Assembly: GCA_973895155.1 (NCBI GenBank)
Contig: OZ316895.1
Location: forward strand, 12,407,929-12,471,928
Source: Marsupella aquatica
Taxonomy: Eukaryota > Plantae > Marchantiophyta
Length of the DNA: 64,000 bases
Reading direction: 5' to 3'
The notes below the pieces were generated by a model. That model was given only the letters and a program-made list of their open reading frames with translations, had not been told where the DNA came from and ran no database searches. Numbering within the stretch: position 1 is the stretch's first letter; each line of letters opens with the position of its first letter. A program made the position numbers and the translations under genes. Shown piece by piece: positions 19,795 through 51,022 of this stretch.

Positions 19795-21186
19795 ATGGTT
19801 CTTTCAAATGAGGAATTTGAAATTATTTTGGCAACTATCCTTGCGTTCCAACAGGTGGTGTTGCAGCAAATGCGGTTTGCAGCTCTGGTTGGTAACTATT
19901 GTTTGGAATCGGGTTTACTTGACAATAGACTCCTTGCAAACTTCTTTCTACTATTTCAAACCATCCAACATGTATTTTAGAGAGACCATCACATTCTATC
20001 TGTAAATTATATTGAGCCGAGGTCAAGAGAATGGAGCGGTTGGTACCTTATGCATGTCATCGAAGACGATCCCGTTCGCTTCAAGCATTTGTTTCGGGTG
20101 TCACCTACAACATTTATGTACATTTGCGACCTGGTTCGAGAAGATTTGACTACACAGCCCCCGCCTGGTCTTCGCAATTTGACCAACAGGACATTGTCTG
20201 TTGAGCGACAAGTTGCCATCGCATTGCGTAGATTTGCCACTGGTTGTTTGTTGTTGACACTTTTAGAGATGTTTGGAGTTTCAGTTCCATGCATTTCTGA
20301 TGTGATTTGGCGATTTGTTAAGGCATTAATTGTGCGCGGCAGAGGAACACATTTGAGTTGGCCACAAGGGGAGGCCATGGCAAAGGTGAAGGAGGGCTTC
20401 CGCCAATTGCAAGGACTTCCAAATTGCTGTGGTGCAATTGATGCCACTCATTTTCAAGTGGAGTTACCTCTTGGAACAAACTCAACTGATTATCGTGACT
20501 ACAAACATGGCCAAAGCATTTCCATGCAAGCAATTTGTGATAGCCAGCTTCGCTTTTTGGATGTTTTTTCGGGATGGCCTGGCAGCATTCAAGACTCTCG
20601 ACTGTTGAGAGTCTCAACTTTTTACAATGATGTTTTGATACAACGCACTAAACTTTCTGGTCCAATGTACAGGGCTCCGACAGGATTTTCTACAGGGGAG
20701 TATATTATTGGTGATTCCGGTTACCCTGCTTATCCTTGGCTGCTAAACCCATTTCCTGCCGCTAGAGAGCATAGTCGAAAGAGGGAGTTCAACTACATGC
20801 TTAGCTCAAGTAGGATGTGCGTGGAGCGTGCTTTTGGCCAATTGAAAAACAGCTGGAGATTTATTTCCCGCAAAATGTTTCGACCGCATCCTTGCCGACT
20901 ACCACATTACATTACATGCGCATGTCTTCTGCACAATATCCGTATTGATCGTGGAGATGTGTATGATCCAGCATGGGCTATAGATGCAGATCCTCCTTAC
21001 GAACCTGGAGGTCCCCCTGCTGGACCTCAGAATTGTAATAATGGGCGTAGATGTCGTATTGCAATGATGAATCATTTGCTGCCTGAGAGAGAGTGGGAGC
21101 AGGAAGTGAAAGACGACGTGCTGCCCATAGACATAATAGACAGTGATGACTCTTTCATGTTTTCAAAAATGCTAAGGCAAATTTGA
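19795..21186 (+). CDS. Harbinger (HARBI1-like, DDE_Tnp_4) transposase; in-frame TAG at 19978-19980 upstream of an intact 378-aa ORF from 20050
   Basis: FKHLFRVSPTTF, HTH region, catalytic GAIDATH / GDSGYP / RMCVERAFG and CACLLHN motifs all intact. Confidence 0.92.
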
Positions 21187-21317
21187 AATAAAATATAAAA
21201 CCAAATTGTGCATGAAAAATGACACCATTGTTTATTCACCATTGCAAGTTTATATTTGAAGTACTACTCTTGACAAGAATGGAAGTAGTTTCTTCTCTAA
21301 ACTAAGTATGTGCTTCT

Positions 21318-23265
21318 CTAATGTGAAGGCCGTGAAGGATTTGTTAGCTTCTCCACAAGAATGGCAGTCATCCGTTCCATCTGGTCAGCTGTCGTGGTTG
21401 CTGCTGTGGTGATTGCTGTTGCCAAAACAGCTGCTTGCCGCTCTCGGTTTGCACTATCAAGCTTGGCCACAGAAACCATCTCAGAACAACTACCAGCCAT
21501 GGTTTTCAGATGTGCTTGTTTGTCTTTCCCAGACTTGGCAGCTCCTCGCTTCACACTTCTATTGCTAGGGCCAGAGAAGTCTTGAGGGGATGAAGGTCCT
21601 CGCACTCCACCTGTATTCTCTGTATTTTGTTGTGTCCTCTCATGTGTTCCAGGTTCTGAGAAGTGTGTCTGGCTTGATGGTGCAGACCTATCTTCCTCAA
21701 CCCCGACATCATCATCACCTGTATAATACAAGATCTTTTGTAATTAGTAAAGCAAAGAAGATGAGAATTTATGTGACCAAAAACCTTTTGCCTAGCAATC
21801 CACCATAGTACAATGTAAATGAATAAAATAAATCACCACATAGGGAAGAGAAGGTTGCTCACTGCCAGATGACAAGTTGAATGGGTCCTGGTGAGAATTT
21901 CGGTTCATCTGAGAGGTGTCAGATAAAAACTTCGTGGGTGGTGTGATGCGCGGAACATTTGCATACCATCCCAACAACTCTGCATACAGATCAACAGAAA
22001 AATTAGTGGGAAATTGATGTTCACGTCGCTCCTCTCCACTCATGTCAAAGTAAGAAATCTGCCCGGTCTTCTGCTTCTTCTCATAATCATAAATCTTTTT
22101 GAACTTGTTGTCAATGAGCTGCCACTTCTTCTTGCAAGATGTTGGGTCTCGGATAGGTTGGGTAAATCCTTCATCCTCCATAAATTTTGCCACTGCCTTC
22201 CATTTCAACTTGGTACTAGTCATCTTCTGTTGTGTAGAGCCATCCATGACAACATTGAGATGTTCATTTTGCTTGGCAGCAATCAAACATTTCATCTCCT
22301 CATCAGTCCAATCTGGCAACTTATTCTTCACTCGAGGTTCTGGTACACCGTTAGGACCCGTAGCAATGTTGAGGTCCAAGTCAATTAATGGAGCATGTTC
22401 TCGTGAAGGTGGACCTCGGCTTCTAACGTTGCTCTGATTACGGCTCGTCATCTGAACATCACACAGCAGTATGCAAGAGACATTATAATCAATTTCAAAA
22501 ACAAAAATTCAAAACAGCCTCTTAGTGTGAGAATAACACACTCAATTCAGACAAAAATAAGACACATATCTCATTTCAAATGGATACTTAAAGTACATCT
22601 CAGCCTTATTCAAGTCAACAAATGGACAAACCTTAGTAATTTTTTGAGCCACTATAATTATTTTTACCAAAAAGTAAAAACAATTGTCAAGGCTCTAAGC
22701 CAAGAGAATCACTATCTACACATCTTTTTTTTCTAGGCCTCACCAGAACCACATCAGGGCCATGCATTGATGGCCCTGTACTATTAGACACATAAGGTGT
22801 AGTAGAGACCAAAGATTCTACTATGTCAATAGCCATTTTGCCTTTGACTATGTTTTTCTGCCCTACATCTATGCTCTGTCCAACAATCTTAGAAAGATTG
22901 GGAGAGATTGGAACCAAAGGTTCACGTGTTGCTGGCACAATATGTTTTTCACCTGGACTTTCCACAGAAATCATTTTCTGCGAGTGACCTCTTCTTTGCA
23001 ATATCTTCAGAGCCTCAAGCTGCATGTTTTCCAACGTGTTATTGTCTCCATGAATCTTACGAATTTCAGCTTTCAAACTGAGATTCTCCTCTTTCAGTCG
23101 TTCAGTCTCTCTACATAAGGCACTGGAATTAGACATCTCAGCTTGCAATGCTGGCCACAGCTCTTTGCTAAACTTAGACTCGAGGTGTGTGAAGTACTCT
23201 TTTGCATCCTTCAACTGCCCCAAATAATTTTTTGCAAAATCCTTCAAATCACGTTTGCTTGCCAT
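21318..23265 (-). CDS. Harbinger Myb/SANT (trihelix-like) DNA-binding protein with N-terminal coiled coil; predicted exons 23265-22744, 22451-21863, 21718-21318
   Basis: WTDEEMKCLI...KWKAVA...CKKKW...YFDMSGEERRE..FP..F; phase-compatible splice sites CTG|gtgagg ... cag|ATG and A|gtgagc ... cag|GT. Confidence 0.8.
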
Positions 23266-24823
23266 GGTGTTATCCTTGCTCTGAAAGGAATGTAAAAGCT
23301 CAATGAATCACATTTTGGAAGTATGCATCCTAGGCCGAATGACAATTTACACCAACCTCAAGAGAACTGAAGAGTACAATGAATAAGATACAAGTAACTA
23401 ACTCTTGTATACTTACAGGCTCGGTTAGTGTAGAATACAAAGCCTAAATTTCAAAATTGTGAAAGGCGTGGGGTCCCTGGTTGCCGTTCCCACTGCAACG
23501 CAAAAATAAAAAATTGAACTTGAAAATTAGATCCAGTAAAATGCGTGTATACTGTAGATATATCCCTGTCCAATGATGCTGGCGAAAAATATCAAAAATT
23601 GAAAATTAAGTCTGGTCAAATGAGTGTCCACTGTGGATGTATCCCTGTGGGATGATGCTAGCGTAGAGAACAAGGATCCAAGTGGCACAGTGGCTTTCCA
23701 GAACTCCGCCTACAACAGAAAACGCTTCATGGGATGGTGGGTCAGATGTCCTCGAGCACATGGACGTGGGCACTTTTACATGGCCAAAAGTAAACAAGTG
23801 CCAAACATTGGGATAGGATCTGAAAGTGACGAGACCAAATAAAGGGAAGCGAAAAAGAGGAAAAAGTTCACTATTCCAAAGTTGACAAAGACTATTGACA
23901 GGGATATATGTACAGTATATCCTGTCATTCCAATGAAAAACGAATGCACACATAAGGTAAAGTCTTTTGTACTAACTTACACAGGCTATAATGACATGCA
24001 AAAGTACAAGTTAAACACCTACGTATGTACCTACAGGTTCCAATGAAATATGAATGCATACATAAGGTAAAGTCTTTTGTACTAGCTTACACAGGCTATA
24101 ATGACATGCACAAGTACAAGCTAAACACCTACAGTACGTATCTACCTACAGGCTCAGTTAGAATAGAAACAAGAGAAAGAATCTTCCAACAAATAACGGA
24201 GAGAACAAACTAAAAAGCAGCAGAGTGCAGATATAAAGCAACGATCTCCTATGTGACCACATACAAGAATTGCAGTGCCGCCAAATGTGGGTAGCCCACG
24301 GGAAACCTAGATAGCCTACATCAGACGAAAGAAGGAATATTGAGAAGCGATCGTGGCAGTACGTAGTGTATAAGCTCAGGCAGGACTTGAAGTGGGCTAG
24401 TCAAATTGAAGTTAAATAGATTGAAGCTATGATGGTTCAGCTGAACAGCGCTCTACCAAAATAATCCAAAATTTGTGAGACACAACATGATTGGAGATCG
24501 AGCACAAACATACCTCAACTTGGTACGTGACTTGGTTGAATTGAACACTCTCAATTGTTGCTCTATGCTCGGTTGAGCACAGACGTATCTTGGATCCCCT
24601 TGACTTGCTTGCGTTGGACACTATTGATTGCTCAACGCTCATTCTCTGCTTGCCCAAAAACTGTCGATTGTTGCTCAATGCTCGGTTGAGCACAGACGTA
24701 CTTCAATTCCCTTTCACCGGCTTCAGTTGGACACTGCCGATTGCTCAGTGCTCGTGCTCTGGCTGCCCAAATGAAAGGTGTGTTCTTCAAATGTACGTCG
24801 ATTGCTTTCCTATTTAACAAAGT

Positions 24824-24903
24824 GGCCATATGCAGGGCGTGTTGAGTACTCACAGCGGCCATATGCAGGGCGTGTTGAGTACTCACAGCGGCCATATGCA
24901 GGG
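24824..24903. repeat. 33-bp tandem repeat (2.4 copies) in Harbinger subterminal region; 28-bp duplication at ~18857-18912 near the other end
   Basis: ggccatatgcagggcgtgttgagtactcacagc repeated; cgcgttccttcactgaagctggagtttt x2. Confidence 0.85.
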
Positions 24904-25477
24904 CCGAGGCCGTTTGCAGGGGGGATACCAGGAATAAGGAGCAGGTGCATCGTGGGTTCACAGTAAATCCATCGAAGCCGTTGCGCAGCACATGTGTCAT
25001 GTTTGAGGTTTGTTTTATTAGCAAAGTATGGGTCAGGACCTGCTAGGGCCGGAATGTTTCCGGACCTTGCCCTTTGGTGCCCACCAGACCTGCAGTCAGA
25101 CCTGCCGCAGGAGGGGCTCACGGGATTTCACAATCATCAAGTATCATGACGACATGTTGCAATCTAAGGGCCGCACTCTGAAGGACTATCCACATGCGAG
25201 TTGGCCCTTAGGGTTTCACGTTTGTCTTACTTGAGTCATACTCAGCGTTTCCCCAACATCCTTTACACTCACTTACAGGGTTACACCTATCCCGTAGTAA
25301 ACCCTATCTCCGACGCAGCTTTCGCTTCCGGGGAATCCCTCACAGAGCGCAGCTCTGAGGGTTTATAGTAGGAACTCTTGAGCTACCCGACAGAGAAATC
25401 GAAACAGTCTTGAGTTTGTGGCGAGCAGAGGAGATTGGAGAATTGCTATCCGGGGAAGCACTGCGTCTGCTATCGAA

Positions 25478-28061: not shown

Positions 28062-30089
28062 ATTAGGGCGTCTCAAATATGAGATTTTGCGGGCGCGGTC
28101 AGCAGCCGTAACATGTAAGTTACGGCTTAAGAGTGAGAAAGTTATGGACTGCCATTTTTGGCAGTCGATAACTTTGTTATGAACGGCGACGGTAACCCGG
28201 CACCGTAGAGCACAGGTCCGTAACGGCTTGACGGTCCCGTCTGAAGAACAGGGTCGGGCTGAACTGGGAATCTGCAGGGATGGGAGAGCATTTGCTGGGA
28301 GACTCGCGGATTGCAGAGTGACGAGCATTGCACAAGGACGACAAGCATTGCAGACGACGATGAGGGCGACGAGGCGACGACGAGCATTGCACAAGAGGAC
28401 ATCACACCTTTGTGCGTGGACAAGACGAGGCTGAACGTGCTAGGAGACAACAAGGGGACGACAACTTTGCAGCTGATTGTCGCAAACCTCCACTCAGGCA
28501 GGAACCAGAGCAGCTTGGTCCCATTTCCGCAGTGTGTTGCCGCATAGGAATCCACTTGAATTAAGGGCAAGGTCTTGGGTCTGTCTCAACTCCCTCGTCA
28601 AGAGCTAACCCCTAATTTCTGCCAGGTGTGTTGTTTTTCCAGGAGCCATGGATGACTGGACGTCACTTGCATTTGTGGAGGAGAACAGGATTGCTGGAAA
28701 TTCTCACTTTTTCGCCAGCACTCGTTTTCCCAGGAAATTTTGTTGCCAGGAATCCCTTCCCTAGGAAATTTACATATTCTTCATGCCGTGCATGTTTGAA
28801 GTCCGTAGAGTTTGGTCAAAAATGTCACCATACTGTGCCTGCACAAATATCATTTTGGTTTCAACTAATTTTGTATGATGCATTCCATGGTGGGGTGTGT
28901 CCTGTGCGTGCCCAGATGTGGGACACAGCTTCTACCTTTCTAGGTGTCGTATGCTATCAAAAGCAAATATTATCGAATATATGCTAAAAACTCGGTGTTC
29001 GTTCCCGTGGAAGAACAAGAATGGGATGAAAAGATGTTTTAAAGTGTTTTGAGTGGTTTAAAGATGGTACTCAACATCTATAAGAAAAATAGAATCTTAA
29101 ACAAAACACAATGAATTAATAAAATAAGAATAAAGTGACATTTGTTGGATAACAGAATCTTAGAGCTTTTAGAGGAATAGTTTAACAATATTTAACTCCG
29201 TCACCATGTCTTAAGAAAGAGCTATGACATTATTTGAGACGTTGATAAATCAAATATAACCTTGCTATAACTGCTCTCTAGGTTTCTACCATAAATCTAT
29301 GTTTAAGAAGTGTCTATGTTCACAAAACCCAAGATAAGTTTCGGATTGTGTGTATAGAAGTGTGTCATTAAAATACCGGCAACATGTTTTCTTCTTCAGC
29401 GATGCGCAATTCCAAAGGAAAACTAATGCACATTCAGTATACCACAATGATACTTCAAATCTGTGAATTAAGAATGTCGCTACTTCTTAATCATATAGAT
29501 TTCTATTCCTTGATTTCATGCAATACTTATCTTCCAAAGATAAGTCCTTCATGTAAATATAGAAATGGACAACAAATGTTGTAGTTTGGATTAGGCACCG
29601 ACCAATGGATCTTCTAATATATTCTACAAACTATATTTTTATGGGTTTTATTTCTTACGGCAATTGCAACATGCGTTACCATACGAAGGAGGGGTAGACT
29701 CCTAGCACAAGTAATCAAATTCCAAGATATGCAAATCTTCCTTGAAAAATTGCATTACACGTACAAGGAACAAAACTCCAAGATGAGGAGATGCAAATAA
29801 CTATCCACACTGTCTCAAAATGAGACTGGTATCACAATAAGTACATGAGATCGTCCACGGGCTAAGGAGAATGAAGAGATATGCCTCTTCATTTCCTAAG
29901 TCTAAACTAAGTAAAATAAAAGTCAACTTTGACTAAGGGATAGTCAAATAGTCAAAGCTAAGTAAAAGTCTACAAAATAAAATATTAATCTCATACTATA
30001 ATAGGAGGAGGGTCGACTACAAGTAGAGGGAGGCGAGCTACATAACCAAGGGCTATCTTCCCTTTGGTCCTCTGTTCCTTCAAATACTG

Positions 30090-31856
30090 TCAACGGAAAA
30101 GGTCCTCACGGTAACGAATCAAACGGGGCTCACTGGTCTTCCGGATGGGATGTCCATCCGGTCCGATCCAAACAAAGTAATCTGATGGCCATGGAATGTC
30201 TGGAGCTGGAAGAGGAAAATGTGCTATGACCTTTCTACAATGATAAACCCAACTCCAAAGGTCAGGAGTCTCAATCGTGGGTAATCTCAGCTTGTCTATA
30301 GGTAGCCATAGAATACCAGGAGAAATCGGAACCATGTCGTAGGTGTGTGGAAAAGGGAAAGACTCACGACCAAACATAAGTGGAGGTAAAGGAGGTGCAA
30401 GGGGAGTGCGTGCGTCGATGAGTGACGTAATCATCCTATCAAACTGGGCGGGAAAGACAAAAAGAGGCTCAATGTCGGCAACAGAAGAGACAATAGGAGG
30501 CTGAGACATCAAAGGAGTAGGAGCTATAAATGGTACACTGGGAGGCTCTATAGTCTCAGGCTCAGGCTCAGTCTCGGGAATAGGCTCATGAATAGGTTCA
30601 TCTCCTTCAATGGTAGGAGAGGGAAATGAATCATCAAGGGGTGATAGGGTGGTATCCTCAATAGAGGAAAATGGATCTGGAGGGGGTATTGGTGAAGGGG
30701 GTAAAGGCTCAGGGGTAGGAGATGGAGGGTGCTCAGGTGAAAATGTAGGAGGGATAGGGGAATTGAGAATAGGGGAAAGAATGGGATCAGGTAGAGGGAG
30801 TGTAGGTGAGGATGGAGGAGGGAGTGAAGGATCAGCAATAGGTAGCTCCGGCTCATCCACATCCATAGGGTGATCAGGCTATGGTGAAGGTGCAAGGGGT
30901 GAAACATGAGGGGGTGGGACGGTATGAGACTCGGAAAGCAAAGCACGAATACAGTCAAGTAACTGTAGAGGGGTACAACTCAAGAGTCTAGTGGCCTCAT
31001 CTACCAAATGCTGGTTGAAACCAGCCACACTAGCTAGTCGCTCAGCATCACCAACAAAAACAGTCCATGACGGGTAAGAAGTGGAAGCAACAAAAGAGGG
31101 TGAAGTCATCCCTGGTAAATCTGGTGCTGTCGTCTGCTCCACTGGAGGGGGTCTCGGAGATGTCATCGGTGGTGGAGTCAACTCTCTCGCTAACTCTGGC
31201 TGAAGTAGCTCAAAGTGTCTTGCTCTCCTCCTCCAATCACTCAGCTCCACTGGTAACAAGCAGCCTCTCGAAAAGTAAATGTGCGCCAAGTAGGGTGTCA
31301 GATAGGTATCACCGGTAGTAGACAAGACAACCACCTACTTGGCGATCACCTCCGAAAGAGCTAAGGCCCAGTTGATCCTCCTCTTGCCAGTCCATGATAT
31401 GATGATAGAGCTGGTCAAGTAAACCATAGCCCTGGTGGGTTTGGTCGGATGAAAGATAGGTACAAGGAATCGGAGTAGATGAGCTAACTCCCGATTCCTG
31501 CACTGATCAATCTTCCAACCATACCTCCGGTCCCTGATACCTCTAAAGTAGGGAACAGTCAAGTCCTCTCCAACAGAGATAAGTCTCTCTCCCTCCTTGC
31601 TCAACTGGTACACCTCAAAAACAACGGCGGTGGTACACACATCAGTTGAACCTCTAGTAGAACTCCAAAAAGTGCCAGCTCGGGGTGGACGAAGAAAATC
31701 GGCAATGATGGACCCATGCACCATATCCCAAGGAAGAAAAAGTAAGGAACTCAAGCCCATCTCTACCAGGTTACTAAGGAGTCTAAAGTAAGCCTTAGGA
31801 CCTGGGGGTAAGGTCACCCTGATGGCCTTACTAATTGGTAAGCTTCTGGTGGCCAT
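30090..31856 (-). pseudogene. Retrotransposon accessory ORF (~590 codons, two in-frame TAG stops) with Pro-rich C-terminal half
   Basis: Three listed ORFs share one frame; motifs GLSSLLFLPW, YGWKIDQC, LRFLVPIFHPTKPTR, INWA, YLTPYLAHIY resemble accessory proteins of bryophyte gypsy elements. Confidence 0.7.
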
Positions 31857-32214
31857 AGCTCAGAAAATCTGAGAAGGCTCTAGAGCTCTCCTCCTAAAAA
31901 CGGTTAAGCATTGAGGCTCAAGAATGAAATCTCAGGGATCTAAGGTAGCTGCGCTACTGTGGGAGAAGGAATGAACTGAAAAGAGATAGAAATGAAGGAG
32001 CTCTGATCAAGCGGGAGAAGGAATGAACTGAAAAGAGATAGAAATGGAGGAGCTCTGATCAAGCGAAGCTCTCGAAATTGCAATTTCTTCATTTCCAAGA
32101 AATCAGAGAGCATCGATGACCCAATACTTCTTAACATCTCATTAATGGCAGTTCAGAATCGGGGTGAACATTCTCTAGGCAGCTGCGCTGCTATAGCAAT
32201 TGAAACGAGCTCAA

Positions 32215-35200
32215 AGTGGTTGGCGGGATTGGCCGCAAATCATAAGCTCTTGCCGGTCAAGGTCTTGCCGCCAGGTACTACCCCAGGAGGAGTTCAAATC
32301 AACCACATCGAACTCGGATGGCAAGTGGATGCTGAGGCAGAATTTGGACCATCTGATGATGAGACTGAGGCCCTATCAACATTTTCAGAAGAGGATATGG
32401 ATCGTGATTGCTACCGGGTCTCTACTCGATCAACCAGAAGGAAGGAAAGGTGGGATGGGCTGGCCAAAAATAAAGGGAAGGTTCAGGAAGAAAAGATCGA
32501 CTCTTCGTCAACATCAACAGAAGGAGAAGGAAGGGCACCATCAACACAGGTAAGCCATGAGCCCACCAGTGAGCCCAATCCTTCACAGGACAGTGACTTC
32601 AATCGAGACCACCCTAAGTTGTTCTACCCATCTATCACGGCTAGTGTTAAGGAACAACTGCGAGAATTAGAAACCCTGGAGAATACTGAAGCCATAGCCA
32701 AGGATATGAAACGAGCAAAAGCATTGTTTGCTTCGGAAGATCCAACGGCTGTGGGGACTAGCATGAAAAAATAGGCCGAATCCAAGATGGAGATAGCACT
32801 GGAGAAGCCGATAGTTCCCTATGACCTGGCTAAAGATGTACTAGTAAGAATCTAGAGTCTCGGCAACAGTAGGTCAACTATTGAAAAATAGCCCATACTT
32901 CCGGAAGCAGTTAAGAAAGGCGATCCTCGGCAAGCCAAGATTACCCAAGGTAGCGACCAGATCCGACGTACTAATGATAGAAGAAGATCAAGGAGCCCCA
33001 GCATTACCATTAATGATTCAAGGAGAAATATTACTACGGGTACCCATCGATGGAGGATTAGGGGTATGTATTATGATTGATTCAACAGCAAAGGGGTGGG
33101 GTCTAATACCGGAAATGACTGGAAGAGTGTTGAACATGGCCAATGGGTATCAGGTCATTCCCACGGGAGTGTTAACCGGCATCAAGACAGAGATAGGAGG
33201 TATCTTCTTTAGCATTAACTATGTAGTAATGAAGCCGGTAAATCCTACGTCATTCCGGCTATTGATTGGTAGGCCGTGGCTATACCTAGCCAAGGTAATA
33301 GAGGATTGGGGTAAGAAGGAGTTCACTTTTGAGACCCCCTCTATCACGGTATTTGGGATACCAAGGATGACCGCAGAAGAAACATCAGGGAGGTAGACGG
33401 GTACGACAGTGGACTGGAATCAGCCGATGAGGTACGATGGTTAGAATGTCTCGCTGACCAAACCGAAGAAAGTGTCTTTGGACCAGAGGTATCCCCCAGC
33501 GGACTATGGCAAGAACCTATGGAGAGTGACTTGGAGGATTGTGAAGACGAAGCCGAGGACTGCTTTGCCACAGAGTCCACCTTTTTAGCTGCAATTCCGG
33601 AGGAAGCACAAGAAGTAAGCCAGTTGGATGAAACGGCTAAGAGGGGAGCTATACCCGTGATGGTGGATTTTCCTCAGGCGTTGTGGCAGAGCCGACAGGA
33701 TCCACAACGCCGTCTATCATCGGCAAGCAATTAAATACCAAGGGATCGGCATAGAAGCCGATTACGAGGGCAGAACAAATTGAGGCCCTATTAGAAGCCG
33801 AGAGAGCACAGCGGCCTGACCCTCAGGAGGAAGAGATGCACAGACACAATCCAGAGCCGAGGCAGGAAGGGAAGCCGACTACCAATTCAAAACCGAATAG
33901 ACCGGCAAGGGGACAATTTGTGGGCACCAAGGGAGAAACCGACTCGGCTAGTACAGCCGAGATTCCAGTTTATGGAGGTATGAGACTGGAAAGGCTGGAA
34001 GCCGAGCTGGACCTGAATTTGAAGAAGCAGATTAATATGATCCAAGCACGGCAATACCGGAAGCTCGACTTAGGAGAAGGAAGGGTACTAAACTTAGGGA
34101 GGGACCTAGCATCTGAGCTTGAAAAAGAGATCAGTGACTTACTGATTGAATTTCAGGATGTGTTCGCATGGAGTCACCAAGATCTAAAGGGAGTAGACCC
34201 AACATTAGGGGAACATCGAATTGATCTCATGTTAGGAGCCAAATCATTCAGACAACCAATTCGAAGGATGAATCCTAAGTATTCCCTGATGGTCAAAACA
34301 GAAATCAACAAATTAGTGGAAGCCGGATTCATCACTCCAGTCCTGCATTCAGACTGGGTGTCTCCAATTGTGATAGTTCCCAAGAAAGCTAGACCCAATG
34401 GTAAACCCAAGATCCGGGTTTGTCAGGATTACAGGAAGCTAAATGAAGCGACGTTAAAAGACCATTTTCCTTTACCCTTTACTGATATGGTACTAGACAT
34501 GGTAGCCAGTCATGAACTATATTCATTCATGGATGGGTACTCTGGTTATAACCAAATCAGGATTAGGCAGGAGGACCAAATCAAGACGGCCTTCATCACG
34601 GAATGGGGGATCTATGTCTTCAATCGTATGCCGTTTGGACTTTGTAACGCACCAGCTATGTTTCAACGATTGATGGTGAACATTTTCCATGATTACTTGA
34701 GAAAGTTCATGGAAATCTTCATTGATGACTTTGCAGTATTCGGGAAAGCATTGAAACATGCTAAATACCTAAGGAAGACCTTCATGAGATGCAGAGAGGT
34801 AGGTCTCAAGTTACATCCAGATAAATGTTTCTTTGGGGTAACAGAAGGTGTGCTACTAGGTCACAAGGTATCAAAGAAGGGCATCGAGATTGACAAAGGT
34901 AAGCTAGCAGTATGGCTTTACATCATGCAACCTAAGAACATAAAGGATGTAAGATCCTTCTTGGGTTGCATTGGGTATTATCGCCGGTTTATTAAAGATT
35001 TTGCCAAACTAGCTTTACCATTAACCAACATGCTCAAGGTAGGCGCAGACTTTGAACCCACACCAGAAAGAGTAACAGCGGTGGTGGAATTAAAGCAAAA
35101 GTTAGTGGAAGCCCCAGTCATGATAGCACCAGACTGGAACAAGGAATTTCATGTCTTTGTAGATGTCTCAGGCTTCTGTATCGGCTCAGTACTAAGTCAA

Positions 35201-36891
35201 TTGGATGAGAAAGGGAGGGACCATCCCATATACTTTACAAGCCGTCAGCTTGCCGATGCCGAACGGAACTACTCCACCACAGAAAGAGAAGCATTAGGAG
35301 TCATTTATTCATGTAAAAAGTTTAGGCATTATTTGCTAGGGTACAAGGTAATCTTTCATACCGATCATGAAAGTTTGAAGTACCTAGTAAATAAGTCGGA
35401 CCTTACAGGCAGGGTAGCAAGATGGATTTTGCTATTACAGGAGTTTGACTACGAGCTAAAGATCAAACCGGGGAAGCTACACGCCAATGCCGACTTCTTT
35501 TCAAGGATCACAGGTGAACCTGCCACGGATTGCATCGATGATCAATTCCCGGACGAGAAGCTATTCGTTGTGGAAATAGCTGATACATGGTACCCGGAGA
35601 TTTTGCAATTTCTCAGCACGTCCAGATTACAGCCAGGGCTAACCCGAGAACAAGCCGCAGTCTTTCTGCGGAAGGTCAGACAGTATCAGTACATTAAGGG
35701 TGTACTACACAGGTATGGAATCAGCGGCAGTATTCAAAGGTGTTTAGAAAAGGGAGAGGTAAAACGAGTCTTACGGGCTATGCATGGAGAAGAGGCCGGA
35801 GGACATTTTTCTCCAGTAACCACGTCTAAAAAGATATTAAATGCCGGTTACTGGTGGCCCACCTTGCACAAGGATGTCTATCAGTTCATCAAACAATGTG
35901 ATCCTTGTCAGCGAGCAGGAGGACCAAGGGCGTCTACAAGACATCCACTGCACCCTATTCTACCTCTGGCACCATTTGAGAAGTGGGGTATTGATTACAT
36001 TGGACCGCTGAAACCATTAACCCATCCTCGGAGAAACATAATCCTGGCCACGGATTATGCCACTAAGTGGGTGGAGGCCAGACCGACAACGAAGGATGAT
36101 GCAATTACTACAACTCGATTTCTGTATGAGCAGATCTTCACCAGGTATGGAGCACCCCTAGAATTAGTTAGTGCTAGAGGAACCCATTTTATGAATGATA
36201 TAATTAGTTGTTTAAATGAGCAGTATTTAGTTAGACATAGGCCTACTACTCCTTACCACCCAAAGGCAAATGGATTGACAGAACGAGCCAATGGGATTAT
36301 AGGAAAGATATTAAACAAGACAGTAGCTCAGAACAAACTCGATTGGGATGATAATTGTTTGCTGTTGTTTTTGCTTACAATTTAGCCTATAAATCCACCA
36401 CCGGACATACACCCTTTTTCTTAACCTTTGGACAAGAAGCTCTGGTACCCATGCAACTTGAGATACCGACATTTCAAGTTACAATTGAGGAAAGAGTCTC
36501 AGAGGAGGAAAGCCTGAAAGAGCGAGAATATAGATTAGAAGCTTTAGAGGAGGCAAGAATGATTTCAGCCGAGAGAGTAGAATATAGACAGAATATCATG
36601 AAGCAGCAGTATGATAAAAAGTTGAAAGTAGTTAGTATTCACACAGGAGATCTTGTATTACTTTATGACAGTAGGTATAGTAGGTTTCCAGGGAAGCTTT
36701 ACACTCGCTGGTTAGGACCTTTCAGGGTATCAAAGAAGTTCCCCAATGGCTCTGTGCAATTGGCCAACATTACTGGAGAGGTGTACCCAGTTCGTATTCA
36801 CTACGACCCCCTCAAGAAATACTATATGGACGAAGATGAAGTTGTTCGCGAGGACGCTTCACAATTAAGTGGGGAGCTATGTGATGCCTAG
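32215..36891 (+). pseudogene. pol: gypsy pol: protease, reverse transcriptase, RNase H, integrase; disrupted by stops and frameshifts
   Basis: PR IDGGLGVCIM; RT DYRKLN, MDGYSGYNQI, MPFGLCNAP, FIDD; RH DVSGF, EREALG, TDH; INT HHCC, WGIDYIG, SARG (catalytic D changed to A), ERAN, WLGPF; frameshift near 36355. Confidence 0.95.
36867..36876 (+). other. Polypurine tract
   Basis: aagtggggag followed by 3 nt and then TGTGATGC, at the very end of pol. Confidence 0.75.
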
Positions 36892-39800
36892 CCAGGAATC
36901 ACTGGGCTAGTTTTAGGGGAAAAGGGAAGTGTACCCTAGAAACACCTTAGTATAGTTACATAAATAAGGAAAATATAAACAATTAAGGGTGACTATGGAA
37001 CCCAAGCCGAGGCCGGAAGTAAGGACGCCAGGGGAGAGAACACAATTAGGGTTAGGGCATGCTAAGTGCCGGCGGCTAGGGGTAACCAACGGGAGGGAGA
37101 ACCAGAGGAGGAGAGGGGTAAGGACCGCTCGCGAGGAATAGTGGCTCATTTGCAAACACAAACTGGGCAGGCGACTATGGGCGGCCAACTATTGTCAACT
37201 GCTTAGGCAAGCGCTCAGGGTGGGAACAAATATTGACTATCAACTTGAGAAGGGTATGAGCAACGTCAATCAAGCGGCACATTTTTGGGGATGCCTGTTC
37301 GAACGGGCAATTGAGTACATTGGGACTTACGAGGACGAAGAATCGGAGAGAGTAGCTCAAGAACGGCAGAAGCTTGCCCGATTGTGGGAGCTGCAGAAAG
37401 CTGCCTTCTTAGGAGGAGAACTCATCAAGGCTGAATTCCTGTGGACGCCTACTGGCAACGAGCTAGACAACCTGTTGTTTTGCGAAGACAGAGTCATCGG
37501 CATCCGTGAAGCCATCAAACGCTACAACGACATACACTGGGAGTTGAAGGGTAGCACGGAGGGGTGGACAAAGGCAACCGTGCTAGGAGAGACATCCACG
37601 GCAGCCGAGATGAAGAGGAAGGGCAACAACAACGAAGAGGCCACCCCGGCAAAAAGAACAAGGTCGGCGGCACCAAAGAAGCCAGCAGAAAAGGAGAGCA
37701 AGAGGCAGAGAGAAGCCGAGGAGGAGGAGGTCGACCCCATCAACGCCATTCCAACAAGAGATGACACCTGGAAAGGCTGGGCGGCGATTCTCCCCGAGGA
37801 AGTGCAATTATACTTTGCACGGGAGGAGGATGCATGCTTTACGGCTATGCAGACTCGGAAATACCAGGGCTTCATGGCCGGATCCAGCTTGGAAGCCTTC
37901 GTAAGGTTACCGTGGCTGAAGCCGGAGGTGCCGGATTCAGACTTACTAGAATTCGTGGGATCATGGGAGTCCGAGACCAATTCCACAAGGGTGTATGGGA
38001 AGGATTTCTATCTCCGCAACCTCCACCAACCCGCATATAGGAGAGATGATCAATTTCTTGCGGGTGACCATGCATTGCAACTGGCCAAGACCAGAGATCG
38101 GCAAGGCACAGGTCTATCTGGCAGAGAGGCCAGACCCAAGCCGGGACTACAATGGTTACCTCCTCACTCAACTAAAGAAGATCTTGAAGGAGGAACAGCT
38201 GGTGATCAGCAAGGGAAGCGTGTCCCGGCTTGGCTATCACGTACCACTATTATGCCGGTATACCCGAAGTAAGACCTTTGCCCCGGTACTTCCCCTACAG
38301 GCAAGGGCACCAGAGGAGGTTCCGGAATAGAGGCCGGCAACGGAGAAACCCAACCCGCCCGACAGTCCTACAATCGAGCAGGTGTTTAGGCCAAGGACGG
38401 AGGACTTGCCGATGCAGCAACCAGGCATGCAAAATCTGCTGAAATTGCTGGAGAAGGAAAAGAGAACGGCAACGGCAACGGCACCAATGCAGGACACTGC
38501 TCCAGAGGTAGGCTTAAGCCGGCTTACAAGGGAAAACCCCTTTACTGGGGTCAAGGAGAGAAGGAGGCCGGAACACGAGCCGGGAGTCCGGATGTATGTA
38601 GGAGCCTCAAGTCCCGAAGCCGAGGAGAAGCAGGCCGTAGCTCCCGGCCACGACAAGGAGAACAAGAGATCAACACGGAAGCCGGAGGAGGAACCAAGAC
38701 CGGTGAGAGGTGAAGCCGTGTTCACGACAAAACTAGGAGAACAGCGGGAGAAGTCGGTAGTCCAAGCCGAGGAGGAGGCGGTAGAGGACTACAGCAATGA
38801 TGACTCCGGCTACGGGTCGGATCATCATGTTCCAAGAGTAAGGACCTGTGGCCGGTTCATCCCCACGCTCCCAAGAGTAGTTCGAGAAGACCCGAGCCAG
38901 CAGAGCAGCCCCGAGTCTCCCCCACCAGATGTCGCTCCCCCGAGCTTTGACGACATAAAACAGACGGCGCAGGAATTTCAGGAGTGAATCAGGGAGGAAG
39001 AGGAGGCAACCTTGGCTAGGGAAAAGGATTTACCAGGAGGAGAATGGCCATAAGACATCAGGCGGCTTGCAGAAAAACAAAGCATCCCTCCAGCCACAAT
39101 AGAAGAGATCCGCAAGGCGGCTTGGGAACAAAGGCCGCGGTGGATGATGCCGATGACTTCTACTTCCTCCACCTATGCTAAAAATAGAGCCATGGAGTAC
39201 GGGGAAATGTGTGGAGAGCTGGCGCTCAGCATCTTTGGGGAGGAGTTGGAGCAAGGACCCTTTTTTCAGAGGGAGATGTTGGAGAAGCGCCAATTAGAAG
39301 AAGCGGTGGCTTTGGAAAGAAGCAAGAAGGATGAGGTCATCCGTCGGCTTAGGGCAAGGGAAGCCGAAATCAAAGACTTGAGGGCGGCCAAGAAAGCCCA
39401 AGATGAGCTGCGGATTAAGCGGCATGAGCTAAATATCATGCAGGGCCAATTGGATATCGCACAGTCTGATAATCGGATTATTGAGAATAAACTAACTCGA
39501 ACCCAAGGAGAGTTGGCCGATGCGATCAAGGAGCGGGAGAAGTGTAAGCGAGAGCTGAGGGATGCAGAGGAGGCCCACATAACAGCCAACAACCGGGCCA
39601 TGGCGGAGACCCAGAGAAGGGAAAGGGCATTGAAGGGGGAGCTTGAGGTTATCCGTGGAGCCCTTGAGCAGAAGGAGGCGGAGTTAGGGAAATCCTATCA
39701 AGGGATTATTGCGCTGCAGCAGGAGCTTGCGTCCCCGACGGCCAGCTTCAAAGCCGACCTGCGTGAGAAGAACAATATGCTCGATCAGACTTACGCCAAG

Positions 39801-41491
39801 ATGAACCAGATGGAGTCTGTCATCATTGCAGAGCTCGACAAGGAGTTAAGAGCGACCCGGGAGGAGAGAGCTGCGTTTAAAGAGGAATTGGAGGAAGCCC
39901 AGAAGGAGTTGGAGGAGGCGCGCAAGGACCTGGACGAAGTGCAGGAAGAGTTGGAGGAAAACACGCGGAAGCTAGAGAACTTACAACGACGAGCCGACAA
40001 CCAAACGGAGCCGCTGAAGAAACAAGCCGCAGTATTTAAGTGCTTGGCTTCATCAGGGCCAACTGAAATTGAGGCCACTAAGTTACCAGGAGTGGTACTG
40101 GCCGAAGGACAAGCCGCGCCATTTGCACCAGTGCCGGAAGTAAGTGGGAAGGGGAAGGGGCCAGCTGCCAAACCAGAAAAGAAGAAGAAGCGGAAACCTT
40201 TAGGGTCAAGGACTAATACGGCTCCATAGGCCGTGGGCACCAAGGAGGTAAACCCAGCACCGACCTCAGGCAGGGTTACGGCAGAGGATCCAACTACCCT
40301 AGAAGAAAGGGATGACAAAGCCGAGGCTAGGATACTCGGTAATGAAACTGAGGTACCCAATCCGCCACTTGAGTGTGTAGGGGAGGCCATAGCCGAGGCT
40401 GATGTTGAAGCCGATGCCGATGCCGGGGGTGGACCCAGTCAGGCCGATGGAGAGTTGACTCAGTCAAGGGCAGGTAATCTGTCAGAGAACGAACCTACGG
40501 CAGTGGCTGAGGAGGAAGCATTGGGGGCGTCCACTAAGGAACAGACACCGCTGCCATGACGGTGGTGGAGGGCCGCTCCTTTCAAGGAGGGCGGACATGG
40601 AGGGAGAAGGCGTGAGTGGGCAGGGCGGGCTCAGATCTCTAAGTTTAGGATTAGGATCAGGACCAAGAGGCGGCCCTGACACTTAGCTTAGTGGGATGGC
40701 GGTTCCATTGGTAAGAGCAACACTTGTACTCCTGCCTCGCTGTACATAGGTAGATTCAGTTAGGTAGATTCAGTTAGGTAAATTCAGTTAGGTAGATTAG
40801 GCTTATGCTGCAAAGAATTAGGCGGATCCACTACCAGGATAAGTACCTGGGCAGCGGGGAGCTCAGGGCCTCTTCTTTAGCAAGTTTTTAGTTGCACCAG
40901 CCGGGCTGGGATCAAGTAGTAAGAGAAGCTCTCGGTTAGTCATACAGTGACCCTTGTGTATATTCATGTTTCCTCATGCCTAAGAGCTGAATAGAGTTGG
41001 CCTCACGGCTTAGTTCGCAGAGCTTGTGTATGAGATGTACTGTTTGTATGGCAAGTGCATGGTATGACTCAGTCAGAAGGAGTCATTTTGCTATTTGTGT
41101 GTCGCATTAACTTGTGTGAAGAGTGCCCACATCAACTAATAGATGAAGGAAAGTAAGCAAGGGAGTGAGAGTTGGATGTGTCGAGCTGAGAGAGGTCTTA
41201 GCGGCTTAACCAAGCCTATTGGGGATCATTCCGGTGGCGGAATCCAAATATACCTAACAAGAAGGAGGGGAAGACAAGGGAAGGCCTAGATTAGGCCGGC
41301 TACGTATCTCATGACCCGATGAAGGATCTGTCCAGTATATGTGTGTAAAATGTTAATAGTAGTAGTAGAAGGAGGTTAGCAGCGTCCCATGCCACTAAGC
41401 CACGAAAACGGCCTCACCAAGCGCAAAACCTGCGGGAATCGGCTTGTGAAGGGGGGTTTCTGGGGTTTAGGGAGCCATGGAACGCACCACA
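36880..41491 (+). repeat. Putative 3' LTR of copy A (~4.6 kb; ~4.75 kb with the internal deletion restored)
   Basis: TG...CA termini with 7/8 inverted repeat TGTGATGC / GCACCACA; directly follows the PPT; same 3' terminus cgcaccaca in the second copy at 45343. Confidence 0.72.
36995..40559 (+). pseudogene. Large accessory ORF (~1,200 codons reconstructed) inside the putative LTR: helical N-terminus, LPW...EF globular domain, long coiled coil, KPEKKKKRK basic patch, acidic tail
   Basis: ATG at 36995 is in frame with 37220; a ~130-bp deletion at ~38012 shifts the frame; most remaining stops are sense codons in copy B; many synonymous differences between copies. Confidence 0.75.
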
Positions 41492-44400
41492 AGGTCGACC
41501 CCGTCAATGCCATTCCAACAAGAGATGACACCTGGAAAGGCTGGGCGGTGACCCTCCCCGAGGAAGTGCAATTACACTTTGCGCGGGAAGAGGATGCATG
41601 CTTACGGCTATGCAGACTCATAAATACCAGGGCTTCATGGCCGGATCCGGCTTGGAAGCATGCGTAAAGTTACCATGGCTGAAGCCGGAGGTATCGGATT
41701 CAGACTTACTAGAATTCGTGGGATCATGGGAGCCCGAGACCAATTCCACAAGGGTGTATGGGAAGGATTTCTATCTCACTCCCTGGGTGATTTCCGAAGT
41801 GTTTGGCTTGCCGATGGGCAATAAGACCAAAGTAGATACCAGGAAGACCTTGCCAGACAAGGAGTTCCGGTTGTTTCAATGGCCATCAACAAAGAATGGC
41901 TTCTTCCGAAACACCTGCACCAACCCGCACATAGGAGAAATGGTCGATTTCTTGCGGGTGACCATGCATTGTAACTTGCCGAGGGCAGCGATCGGCAAGG
42001 CACAGGTCTATCTGGGGGAGAGGCCAGACCCAAGCCGAGACTACAACGGGTACCTCCTCACCCAACTAAAGAAGATCTTGAAGGAGGAACAACTGGTGAT
42101 CGGCATGTGAAGCGTGTCCCGGCTTGGTTATCACATGCCGTTGTTGTGCCGGTATGCCCAAAGCCAGATATTCGCCCCGGTACTGCCCCTGCAGGCAAGA
42201 GCACCAGAGGAGGTTTCGGAACCAAGGCCGGCAACAGAGAAACCAATCCAGCCCGACAGTCCTACAATCGAGCAGGTATTTAGGCCGAGGAAGGAGGACT
42301 TGCCGATGCAGCAACCAGGCATGCAGAATCTGCTGAAATTACTGGAGAAGGAAAAGAGAACAGCAGCGGCAACGGGGCCAATACAGAATACTGCTTCCGA
42401 AGTCGGCCTTAGCCAACTTACCAGGGAAAACCCCTTTACCAGGGCCAAGGAGAGAAGGAGGCCGGAACACGAGCCGAGAGTCCGAATGTATGTAGGAGCT
42501 TCAAGTCCCGAAGCCGAGGAGAAGCAACCCGAGGCCCCTGGTCACGACAGGGAGAAGATGAGATCAACGTGGAAGCCGGAGGAACCAGGACCCGTGATCT
42601 GTGGGGTTGTGTTCACGGCAGGACCAGGACAGCAGCTGGGGGAGCCGGTAGTCCAAGCCGAGGAGGAGGCGGTAGAAGGCTACGACAATGATGACTCCGA
42701 CTACGGGTCGGACCATCATGTTCCAGGAATAAGGACCTGTGGCAGGTTCATCCCCACTCTTCCAAGAGTAGTTCGAGGGGACCCGACCCAGCAGAGCAGC
42801 CCCGAATCTCCCCCACCAGATGTCGCTCCCCCGAGTTTTGACGGCATAAAATAGACGGCACAGGAGTTTCAAGAATGACGCAGGGAGGAAGAGGAGGCAG
42901 CCTTGGCAAGGGAGAAGGATTTACCAGGAGGAGAATGGCCAGAGGACATCTGGCGGCTTGCAGAAAAATGAAGCAGCCCGCCAGCCATGATAGAAGAAAT
43001 TTGCAAGGCTGCCTGGGAACAAAGGCCGCGGTGGATGATGCCGATGACTTTTGCTCACTCCGCCTATGCTAAAGAACGAGCCATGGAGTACGGGAAGATG
43101 TGTGGGGAACTTCCACTCGACATCTTTGGGGAGGAGTTGGAGCAGGGACCTTTTTTGCAGACAGAAATGTTGGAGAAGCACCGATTAGAAGAAGCGGTGG
43201 CTTTGGAAAGAAGCAAGAAGGACGAGGTCATCCGTCGGCTTAGGGCAAAGGAAGCCGAGGTAGAAGACCTGAAGGCGTCCAAGAAAGCCCAAGATGAGCT
43301 ATGGATTAAGCGGCATGAGCTCAACATCATGCAAGGGCAATTGGATACCGCGCAGTCTGATAATCAGATTATCAAGGATAAACTTACTCGGACCCAATGT
43401 GATCTGGCCGATTTGATCAAGGAGAAGGAGAAGTGGAAGCGAGAGCTGAGAGACGCATAGGAGGCCCACATAGCAGCCAACAATCGGGCCATGGCGGAAA
43501 CTCAGAGAAGGGAAAGGGCGTTGAAGGGGGAACTCGAGGATATCCACGGAGCCCTTGAGCAGAAGGAGGCCGCGTTAGGGAAATCCTATCAGGCGATTAT
43601 CATGCTGCGGCAGGAGCTCGCATCCATGACGGCCAGCTTCAAGGCCGACCTCCGCGAGAAAGACGACCAGCTCGACCAGACTTATGCCAAGATGAATAAA
43701 ATGGAGTCTGAGGTCGTTACGGAGCTTGACAAGGAGCTGAGAGCAACCCAGGAGGAGAGGGCGACCTTAAAGAAGGAATTGGAGGAAGCCCAGAAGGAGC
43801 GGGAGGAGGCGTGCAAGGACCTGGATGAATTGCAGGAGGAGTTGGAGGAAAGCACGCAGAAGATGGAAAACTTACAGCGGCGAGCCGACAACCAAACGGA
43901 GCGGTTGAAGAAACAGGCCGCAGTATTTAAGTGCTTGGCTTCCTCAGGACCAACTCCAATTGGGGAAACCAAGTTACCTGGTGTAGTACTGGTCGAAGGA
44001 CAAGCCAAGACACTCGCACCGGTGCCGGAGGTAAGTGGCAAGGGGAAGGGGCCAGCTGCCAAACCAAAGAAGAAGAAGAAGCGGAAATCTTCTGGGTCAG
44101 GGAGTAATACGGCTCCTCAAGCCATCGTGACCAAGGAGATAAACCCAACACCAACCTCAGGCAGGGTCACGGTAGAGGATCCAACTGCCCTAGAAGGCGA
44201 GGATGATGAAGCCGGGGCCAGGATACTTGGTGATGAAGCCGGGGTACCGGATCCATCACTAGAACATGTCGGGGAGGCCGTGGCCGATGCTGAGGCCGAA
44301 GCCGAGGATGGACCCAGTCAGGCCGATGGAGAGTTGACTCGGTCAAGAGCAGGTAATCTGTCAGAGGACGGACCTACGGTAGTGGCTGCGGAGGAAGTGT

Positions 44401-45343
44401 TGGGGGCGTCCATTGAGGACCAGACACCGCTGCCATGATGGTGGTGGAGGGCCGCTCCTTTCAAGGAGGGCGGACGTGGAGGGAGGAGGCGTGAGTGGGC
44501 AGGGCGAGCTCAGATCTCCAAGTTTAGAATTAGGATCAGGACCAAAGGGCAGCCCTGACACTTAGCTTAGTGGGATTGTGAATCCACTGGTAAGAGCAAC
44601 ACTTGTGCTCCTGCCTTGCTGTACATAGGTAGATTATAGTTAGGTAGATTAGGCTTACGCTGCAAGGAATTAGGCGGATCCACTACCAGGACAAGTACCT
44701 GGGCAGCGGGGAGTTCAGGGCCTTCTTCCTTAGCAAGTTTTTAGTGCATCAGCAGGGCTGGGATCAAGTAGTTAAAGAAGCTCTCAGTTAGTTATATTGT
44801 GATCCTTGTGTATATTCATGTTTCCTCATACCTAAGAAATGAATAGAGTTGGCCTCACGACTTAGTTCGCAGATCTTGTATATGAGAAGTACTGTTTGTA
44901 TGGCAAGTGCATGGTATAACTCAGTCAGAAGGAGTCATTTTGCTATTTGTGTGTCGCATTAACTTGTTTGAAGATTGCCCACATCAACAAAGAAGGGAGT
45001 AAGCAAGGTAGTAGAGTTGGATGTGTCGAGCTGAGAGAGGTCTTAGCGGCTTACCCAAGCCAATTGGGGATCATTCCGGCGGCGGAATCCAAACATACCT
45101 AAAGGAAAACCGAGAGAGGAGGACAAGGGAAGGCCGAGAATAGGTCGGCTACGTATCTCATGACCCGATGAAGGATCTGTCCAATATATGTGAGTAAAAT
45201 GTTAATAGCAATAGTAGTAGAAGGAAGTTAGCAGCGTCCCATGCCGCTAAGCCGCGAAATCGGCCTCGCCAAGAGCGAAACCTGCGGGAATCTGCTTGAG
45301 CAGAGGGGTTTCTTGGGTTTAGGGAGCCATGAGACGCACCACA
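41492..45343 (+). mobile_element. Right-hand part of the LTR of a diverged family member (copy B), with accessory ORF remnant to 44438
   Basis: Colinear with copy A from 37728 to 41491; ends cgcaccaca at 45343. Confidence 0.9.
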
Positions 45344-49950: not shown

Positions 49951-50505
49951 TTGAGACAACACTTTTGACCCGCATTTATGGGCCGGTAAGGGCAGCTTTT
50001 TAGGATCCTTGCACATGCAAGACAGCCCTTAGAGAATGAGATCCGGCCAAGACCACCATTGAGACAACACTTTTGACCCGCATTTATGGGCCGGTAAGGG
50101 CAACTTGTTTTAGGACCTTGCACATGCAAGACAGCCCTTAGAGAATGAGATCTGGCCAAGACCACCATTGATGCCCTTACTGAGTTCACCAAGACCACCA
50201 TTGACACCCTTACTGAGAGCACCAAGACCACCATTGACGCCCTTACTGAGTTCACCAAGACCGCCATTGACACCCTTACTGAGAGCACCAAGACCACCAT
50301 TGACTCCCTTACTGAGTTCACCCAGACCACCATTGACACCCTTACTGAGAGCACCAAGACCACCATTGACACCCTTACTGAGAGCACCAAGACCACCATT
50401 GACACCCTTACTGAGAGCACCAAGACCACCATTGACACCCTTACTGAGAGCACCAACACCCACCATTGACACCCTTACAGAGATGACCACCGTTGACACC
50501 CTTAC
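49951..50505. repeat. ~110-bp duplication followed by a 33-bp minisatellite (~10 copies)
   Basis: ttgagacaacacttttgacccgc... x2; ccaagaccaccattgacacccttactgag(agca/ttca) units 50156-50505. Confidence 0.95.
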
Positions 50506-51022
50506 CGAGATCCATAACCAGAGTCAGTCAGGCGAAGAGTGACCGAACTCCAGAGAGAGATTGTTCCACCATCGCTCAGAGGTCCTCGACCTCGACGGCA
50601 ACAATGGGCGTAGAGCACTCCTGATTCTCTATTGCTAAAAAGCAGAGCAGACTCTGAGGCGCGAAATTGCAACTAACGTGCCAGCTACAGAAGCCATCCC
50701 CGGAATTGTGACTAACGTGCCAGCTCCAGAAGCCATCCAGGAAAAAAATCCTTTGATCAGCTCCAGCGATCGATTACTTGTCCATCGCATCGAGTGACAT
50801 TGCATTTCCGCTTCCCTCCGTGCCACACCTGTAGCCCCTCAGCTGCAATCCCTTCGCATGTTCCGTTCCGGGGGGACATACTTGCACCAATTCAGTTCAT
50901 TCGATGCGGTGCGGTGCTGATTTGGTTGGAGGCATTCTTGGAAAGCGTCCACTTCCATATCAGCTGCGTTGATTACAAATCTGGTCTTCGGTGAAAATTC
51001 AGGAGATTCATTGCTCGGCGTA

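Follow-up and report, generated by a model that had tools for sequence, protein, structure and literature searches.

A liverwort gypsy retrotransposon with a selected accessory gene, very probably inside its long terminal repeat

A decayed gypsy element and its terminal unit

The stretch of DNA analyzed here, hereafter the window, comprises 64,000 nucleotides of the liverwort Marsupella aquatica (assembly GCA_973895155.1, contig OZ316895.1, positions 12,407,929 to 12,471,928). It holds a retrotransposon, element A, whose pol region runs through a polypurine tract (PPT) into a unit of 4,612 bp at its present length, which begins with TG and ends with CA. This unit (copy A) is read as the 3′ long terminal repeat (LTR) of the element, and it contains a long accessory open reading frame (ORF) with its own ATG. 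As will be seen, this ORF very probably lies inside the LTR and has evolved under selection.

The domain order of element A is protease, reverse transcriptase, RNase H and integrase, as in the Ty3/gypsy type (Table 1). Its pol contains a single frameshift near 36355-36385, and its best named matches come from Calypogeia fissa (64-65% over parts) and Riccia sorocarpa (53-55%). Neither a chromodomain nor a CR motif was found at the integrase C-terminus, which has no chromo Pfam match and ends in an SH3-like domain instead. The additional RNase H that is a trait of the Tat clade was not found in pol either, in a search that used no profile specific to it. About 100 residues separate the RNase H from the integrase zinc finger, and nothing follows the integrase. 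Element A is thus a decayed non-chromovirus Ty3/gypsy element, with liverworts as its likely host group.

Table 1. Features of element A and of the two copies of its terminal unit (positions in the window).
Positions	Strand	Feature	Remarks
32007-32774	+	3′ remnant of the gag region of element A	5′ part lost; junction near 32217
32848-33396	+	Protease region, decayed	tblastn to protease regions of relatives
33755-36891	+	pol: reverse transcriptase, RNase H, integrase zinc finger, core and SH3-like end	Pfam and domain reading
36844-36879	+	Pre-LTR motif GTTCGCG...CAC...GGGG, including the PPT	Motif search; directly at the integrase end
36880-41491	+	Copy A of the TG...CA unit of ~4.6-4.7 kb	Read as 3′ LTR of element A
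36961-36997	+	AT-rich stretch with TATA-like words just 5′ of the ATG	Candidate promoter or splice acceptor
36995-40559	+	Accessory ORF, ~1,230 codons counting the extra 131 nt of copy B	Copy A: five stops, one frameshift
37730-38318	+	Core globular domain, ~190 residues	Interrupted in A; continuous in B at 41604-42170
39300-40020	+	Predicted coiled coil, ~240 residues	Rich in E/K/R/L/A, almost no proline
40166-40200	+	Basic patch KPEKKKKRKP (B: KPKKKKKRKS)	Putative nuclear localization signal (NLS)
40560-41491	+	Non-coding LTR tail	7.8% divergence between A and B, against dS 0.34 in the ORF
40570-40599	+	Second PPT-like hairpin CCGCTCCTT-TC-AAGGAGGGCGG, then TG at 40598	Identical in B (44449)
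41492-45343	+	Copy B, a 5′-truncated LTR with the GCACCACA end	No primer-binding site behind

The terminus at 36880 and the layout in related elements

The original prediction had pol crossing a PPT into a TG unit that is closed by an inverted CA terminus, and both statements hold. The PPT AAGTGGGGAG is found at 36867-36876 and TGTGATGCC at 36880, the integrase stop codon (36889-36891) falls 12 nt inside the LTR, and GCACCACA closes copy A at 41491 and copy B at 45343. The PPT accordingly adjoins a TG...CA LTR with a terminal inverted repeat. Among the 236 TG sites between 36850 and 41300, the one at 36880 alone matches the inverted terminus at seven of eight positions; the TG at 40598 matches at four of eight. 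Copies A and B finish at the same base, with unrelated DNA beyond.

The same boundary was looked for in contigs from four public runs (X1-X4) belonging to two studies, compared over 36730-37030; X3 and X4 represent two studies and two organism labels. Three contig pieces begin exactly at 36880 (among the 32 listed of 2,234). In X3, record 22 starts there with 38 unaligned bases upstream (depth 24), and record 23, a unitig of depth 664, ends exactly at that position, which is to be expected where many different flanks join one terminus. In X4, record 29 starts at 36880 with 296 unaligned bases upstream (depth 30). Where contigs have a divergent pol end, their alignment nevertheless extends across the conserved PPT motif to 36843 in three runs, and flanks stopping at 36880 are therefore without this motif. 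Other subfamilies diverge from copy A just after TGTGA, with loose ends behind 36884 in three runs. At the opposite end, contigs in X1 and X2 leave the unit at 41491 for other positions, although such contigs do not distinguish 5′ LTRs from solo LTRs; no junction with a primer-binding site (PBS) was present at this end among the contig rows listed. Position 36880 is a real end of the element. Just inside it, the stretch 36961-36997 is aligned by many contigs of all four runs, and the adjoining 36917-36960 is variable.

Related elements were collected by an integrase-core scan of metagenome contigs, from which the best 80 of 537 loci were kept (L numbers). In six of them (L001-L004, L006 and L008) an ORF just 3′ of the integrase and in sense orientation matches, by tblastn, a minus-strand ORF of the window located upstream of element A and described below. 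A profile built from five of these six adds L007, and the domain of this family compares with the LTR-ORF subfamily of the window (11 rows) at a profile probability of 96.4 (E 1e-9). The motif GTTCGCG...CAC...GGGG followed by TG, which occurs once in the window, was found in 6 of the 80 loci. In L001, L003, L006, L007 and L008 it comes straight after the integrase and before the ORF, as in the window. In L004, a circular contig of 10.7 kb, it comes after a 742-codon ORF and opens an LTR of about 1 kb ending before TGGCGCCGCTGCCGGGGA; L004 has the ordinary layout, with the ORF internal. L003 reads in order LTR end GCTCCCACA, PBS, gag, pol, PPT motif, start TGTGGGAGC and homologous ORF. Its TGTGGGAGC and GCTCCCACA are perfect inverse copies of each other over 9 bp, and no second LTR end appears in the last 1,370 bp, where 285 codons of the ORF lie. 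This match of start and end with no recurrence of the end places the ORF within the LTR for L003's own family. A motif matching a PBS of the tRNA-Asp type is present in L003, L004 and L017, and we take the PBS of these relatives, a few bases after the LTR, to be of the tRNA-Asp kind (compare PMC1142308).

In a tree built on 35 integrase rows, the window falls together with two Riccia rows and with the groups of L003 and L004 in one clade (100/98) that has an open fork inside. This clade stands apart from four angiosperm rows, in a tree that includes no REXdb references and whose deep forks are weak. Judged from these sequences, both layouts, with the PPT before or after the ORF, coexist in one clade. 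A third layout was seen in L021 (1-4710), where a related-looking domain and a coiled coil are fused in frame to the integrase in an ORF of 1,570 codons, followed by a PPT and an LTR of about 0.55 kb; its link to the family is weak (iE 0.009).

Three findings support the claim that the ORF sits inside the LTR, namely the non-pol flanks at 36880, the terminal inverted repeat and the matching layout of L003, and we regard this claim as very probable.

The accessory reading frame and its protein

The ATG at 36995, the TGA at 40557-40559, the basic patch, the long helical stretch and the acidic tail described in the original prediction are all present. The single ORF of about 1,200 residues holds only as a reconstruction, since no copy is open over 1,200 codons. 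Copy A has in-frame stops at 37139, 38328, 38985, 39051 and 40227 and has lost 131 nt near 38013, which shifts the frame. Of these stops, the one at 40227 alone is among the 40 positions listed for the contigs, and almost every contig of the four runs has a different base there. Copy B contains five in-frame stops, and its frame is shifted by 1 nt near 41601. Copies A and B are both dead.

Their past is another matter. Over 933 aligned codons, copies A and B differ at 102, 87 and 184 first, second and third positions, which bears out the excess of third-position changes noted earlier. The ratio of nonsynonymous to synonymous divergence (dN 0.093, dS 0.34), a check proposed with the original prediction, is 0.27 (95% bootstrap 0.21-0.34) and indicates purifying selection. 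It is 0.82 and 1.18 in the shifted frames, which rules out a chance ORF. By region, dN/dS is 0.16-0.37 in the core domain, 0.18 in the coiled coil and 0.56 in the acidic tail. The frame was therefore translated and selected while the two lineages diverged.

Copy B matches copy A from 37728 to the end at 86-93% identity, without the first ~850 bp of the unit. Its abrupt beginning after the CA of copy A would be expected had element A landed in an older LTR of the family, and A was likely inserted into copy B, whose other half and target-site duplication (TSD) partner fall outside the window. Other contigs run from the LTR end (41491, 41480) into the interior of the same unit at 38856, 38899 and 40626, like A into B, and the family may often insert into its own LTRs. 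Summed contig depth over the ORF exceeds that over pol about 2-4 times, and over the tail it rises by another factor of 1.2-2.7; these values give no copy number and were counted for neither reading of the LTR.

The encoded protein starts with some 200 residues that have no detected relatives, followed by the core domain, a proline- and acid-rich linker, the coiled coil (whose Pfam matches are weak and below cut-off), the lysine-rich patch and, as C-terminal part, the acidic tail. The highest 19-residue hydropathy is 0.57-1.13 in three protein pieces, and a membrane Env was ruled out, there being no transmembrane or hydrophobic segment. The ORF is not a gag either: it has no gag domain, and the relatives possess a separate gag. 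A phmmer search of 1.84 billion representatives returned 14 matches, of which nine were kept; of the five dropped, four are helicase-associated-repeat proteins that match over short stretches and one is a repeat artefact. Calypogeia fissa supplies one of the homologues of the LTR protein. A search of longer proteins with the B domain, seeded on words, gave 0 of 347 candidates, and a scan of genome contigs with query P0121 no relative among 601 pattern matches.

The AlphaFold models are poor (pLDDT 39 for the N-terminal 210 residues, 44 for the core domain), and with this core-domain model Foldseek and VIA-align returned nothing clear; profile searches of PDB sequences gave nothing under E 0.09. 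For two homologues, Atlas structure rows lead to ATHILA ORF-1, Transposase_32, PMD and DUF1985 clusters, with TM 0.46-0.66 on low-confidence models, below the bar for naming. As leads from such models go, the core domain is likely of the Athila-ORF1/Transposase_32/PMD kind. The accessory gene announced by the original prediction is real and selected. Its protein is not an orphan: accessory ORFs of related elements carry the same core domain, and in some of these elements the ORF is internal. The product is predicted to be a nuclear, oligomeric protein.

Accessory genes inside or overlapping the LTR, in U3, are familiar from retroviruses, namely sag of MMTV and nef of HIV; these ORFs are much shorter than that of the window, and no sequence relation to it is expected. 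Extra ORFs of plant elements are assigned to the internal region in PMC6317226, PMC7264820, PMC11963269, PMC3485330 and PMC12885004; the first three describe them either downstream of pol and ahead of the 3′ LTR or upstream of gag. Among the closest known systems are the Athila/OTA elements, whose extra ORFs include Athila ORF-1 (PF03078), Transposase_32 (PF20167), PMD (PF10536) and TRP28 (PF04195). They share with the window a non-chromovirus pol followed by a sense ORF, a globular domain with coiled coil and NLS-like patch, LTRs of up to ~5 kb and a second PPT-like motif. Their ORF is internal, whereas that of the window lies behind the PPT and its protein scores with no Pfam family; an extra ORF between pol and PPT, the Athila trait, is absent from the window and present in L004. 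CRM group A (PMC3059260) also has coding sequence behind the PPT in the 3′ LTR and a TGATG-type LTR start, but these are chromoviruses in which the LTR encodes only the polyprotein tail (CR motif), whereas the window has a separate ORF of ~1,230 codons with its own ATG, filling three quarters of the LTR. In Phygy/Selgy, short elements without extra ORFs (PMC6317226), the polyprotein fills the internal part; pol reaches the PPT in the window too, which differs by its ~1,230-codon extra ORF and 4.6-kb LTR.

On the side of function, Grande encodes a nuclear accessory protein with its own promoter (PMC7264820). MAIN and MAIL1, which carry a gypsy-related PMD, act in silencing (PMC5418596). MAIN is a structural homologue of VANC, and for the domains of VANC and Athila an assembly into coiled-coil pentamers is predicted (PMC13547354). 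Through the PMD/Athila leads the window protein could share a fold class with these proteins; VANC, from VANDAL elements, is likewise transposon-borne and has a coiled coil, but its carriers are MuDR DNA transposons, and the window protein gave no sequence or structure match to it, on a poor model. An exact-phrase search of open-access text, supplements excluded, found no paper that describes a separate gene within the LTR of a plant element; cases may be contained in REXdb tables or in Steinbauerova et al. (2011).

Proposed route, rival readings and neighboring features

How could such a gene have come to lie in an LTR? The coexistence of both layouts in one clade makes a PPT shift the likely event that moved an internal gene into the LTR, and we lean slightly toward this route: plus-strand priming would have moved to a PPT upstream of the accessory gene. 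Reverse transcription would then copy everything downstream of that PPT to both ends, so that each insertion would carry two copies of the gene, and recombination between LTRs would leave it in solo LTRs. A hairpin similar to that behind the ORF follows the integrase in L004 and L005, so that each of the two motifs stands on opposite sides of the ORF in the window and in L004. The hairpin of the window is likely a relic or secondary PPT, and the tail is likely the old short LTR, with promoter, R and U5, which would place the ORF in U3. Within the tail, a 14-bp unit is repeated 3.7 times at 40747-40798 in copy A, and the array is shorter in copy B. The gene would be read from an RNA of its own or from a spliced RNA, and its product would act on the element's own chromatin against silencing.

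This nuclear chromatin or anti-silencing role is plausible at slightly less than even chances. Taken as a whole, the explanation that the 3′ LTR at 36880-41491 holds a selected accessory gene, brought there by a PPT shift and coding for a nuclear anti-silencing product, appears reasonably probable to us. Its widest form is doubtful, namely that a bryophyte lineage moved a chromatin-acting gene into its LTR by a primer-site switch, each solo LTR staying a trans-acting anti-silencing gene and the host's principal means of deleting LTR elements leaving the counter-defence in place.

Several observations weigh against an ORF carried in the LTR or against its history as just proposed. No full-length copy, PBS junction or TSD of the family was seen in the window or the listed contigs, and position 36880 does not occur among the 24 loose ends listed of 174. 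The flanks there were judged non-pol from where alignments stop and not from their letters, and the runs with the best matches may include the window's own sample. The integrase tree gives neither the direction nor the number of PPT shifts. Upstream-primed plus strands are reported to be outcompeted by the natural PPT (PMC2829016), and a shift therefore requires a weakened downstream PPT. As to the protein, no Pfam match above curated cut-off was obtained for window pieces, relatives or homologues; the profile match of A4 to P0067, best at the start of its Transposase_32 domain, is weak (E 0.059), and A3 gave no alignment to that domain. Finally, in copies A and B alike the ORF stop is directly followed by the PPT-like hairpin and TG, and the tail has diverged far less than the silent sites of the ORF, as would be true of a separate short LTR.

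The last two points belong to an ordinary internal ORF, in which the true LTR would be the tail of ~0.9 kb that begins with TG 40598, with the hairpin as its PPT, and 36844-36879 an extra upstream PPT. The original prediction had named a short LTR after ~40560 with its own PPT as its counter-case, for which the window offers one supporting feature, the hairpin at ~40570-40597 with its TG. The ~1-kb LTR and internal ORF of L004 are in keeping with it, as are the extra PPTs reported for Athila4 and Calypso (PMC2829016). It leaves unexplained the non-pol flanks and the unitig end exactly at 36880, it faces an inverted match that is much poorer at 40598 than at 36880, and the motif at 36844 marks the true LTR start in L004 and L003; we hold it to be very improbable. 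An Ogre-like ORF following a short LTR in tandem elements was rejected, as there is no PBS between 36880 and the ATG. Alternatively, the ORF could lie in the LTR but in R/U5, as the first gene on the genomic RNA, with gag-pol expressed via splicing or a second promoter. The TATA-like words 15-45 nt before the ATG, ~80-100 bp inside the LTR, would suit this arrangement, as would a TATA-like word and pyrimidine-rich stretch seen by eye before the ORF in L001 and L003, ~450 bp inside the LTR. Yet minus-strand strong-stop DNA would have to exceed 4 kb, the conserved tail has the size of the whole L004 LTR, and accessory genes with promoters of their own are known, as in Grande; the arrangement seems improbable.

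The role of the protein can also be read otherwise, as serving the particle or integration (pre-integration scaffold, nuclear import, tethering) instead of silencing, perhaps as two proteins. The fusion in L021, the basic NLS-like patches and the CRM integrase targeting domain encoded in the 3′ LTR (PMC3059260) speak for this. So does the TGA common to both copies (38985 in A, 42876 in B), at which two ORFs or read-through may occur and which also counts against one continuous frame. With ~8-11 CGA/TGA sites per copy, a TGA shared by chance and an ancestral stop are both possible. Of the 53 codons from it to the next Met, 15 are changed, seven of them silently, and the silent changes favor a continuous frame. 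As the family link of L021 is weak, the window integrase ends 12 nt inside the LTR, ahead of an ORF that starts at an ATG of its own, and the structural leads point to chromatin regulators (PMC13547354 and PMC5418596), we consider a particle or integration role unlikely. A selected gene carried in the LTR, with a product acting on chromatin, remains our preferred explanation.

Why should this matter? Annotation tools and surveys of extra ORFs treat LTRs as non-coding. They would mis-annotate a family in which a gene takes up three quarters of the LTR, and solo LTRs of such a family could be mistaken for host genes. Should solo LTRs express the protein, removal by recombination would not disarm the family. 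With both layouts in one clade, kilobase jumps in LTR length by PPT shift become testable, as does the role of accessory proteins of the Athila-ORF1/PMD type.

On its 5′ side, element A lacks a 5′ LTR, PBS and TSD in the window, and this part has been replaced by the minus-strand ORF of another family (31859 to 30090). Near the junction at 32217, contigs from three runs start aligning, with other DNA upstream. The minus-strand ORF (30090-31859, 589 codons with two internal stops) belongs to a second family of the same accessory-protein group, is closest to L002 and L004 (33-42% identity) and abuts the truncated gag near 32217. A possible PPT and LTR start were read by eye on the minus strand near 28930-28945, and a 52-bp duplication lies upstream of the ORF at 31961-32065.

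Farther away, inverted repeats of 44 nt (18557-18600 and 25165-25208) delimit a PIF/Harbinger-type DNA transposon at 18557-25208, which contains a DDE_Tnp_4 ORF (19981-21186, plus strand) and a Myb/SANT ORF (21792-22508, minus strand). Host-like genes on the plus strand encode an OVATE domain (7124-9154), a G-patch domain (55849-56481) and a YqaJ-like nuclease domain (60464-61705). Tandem arrays with units of 109 bp and 33 bp, the latter in about 10 copies, occupy 49951-50511.

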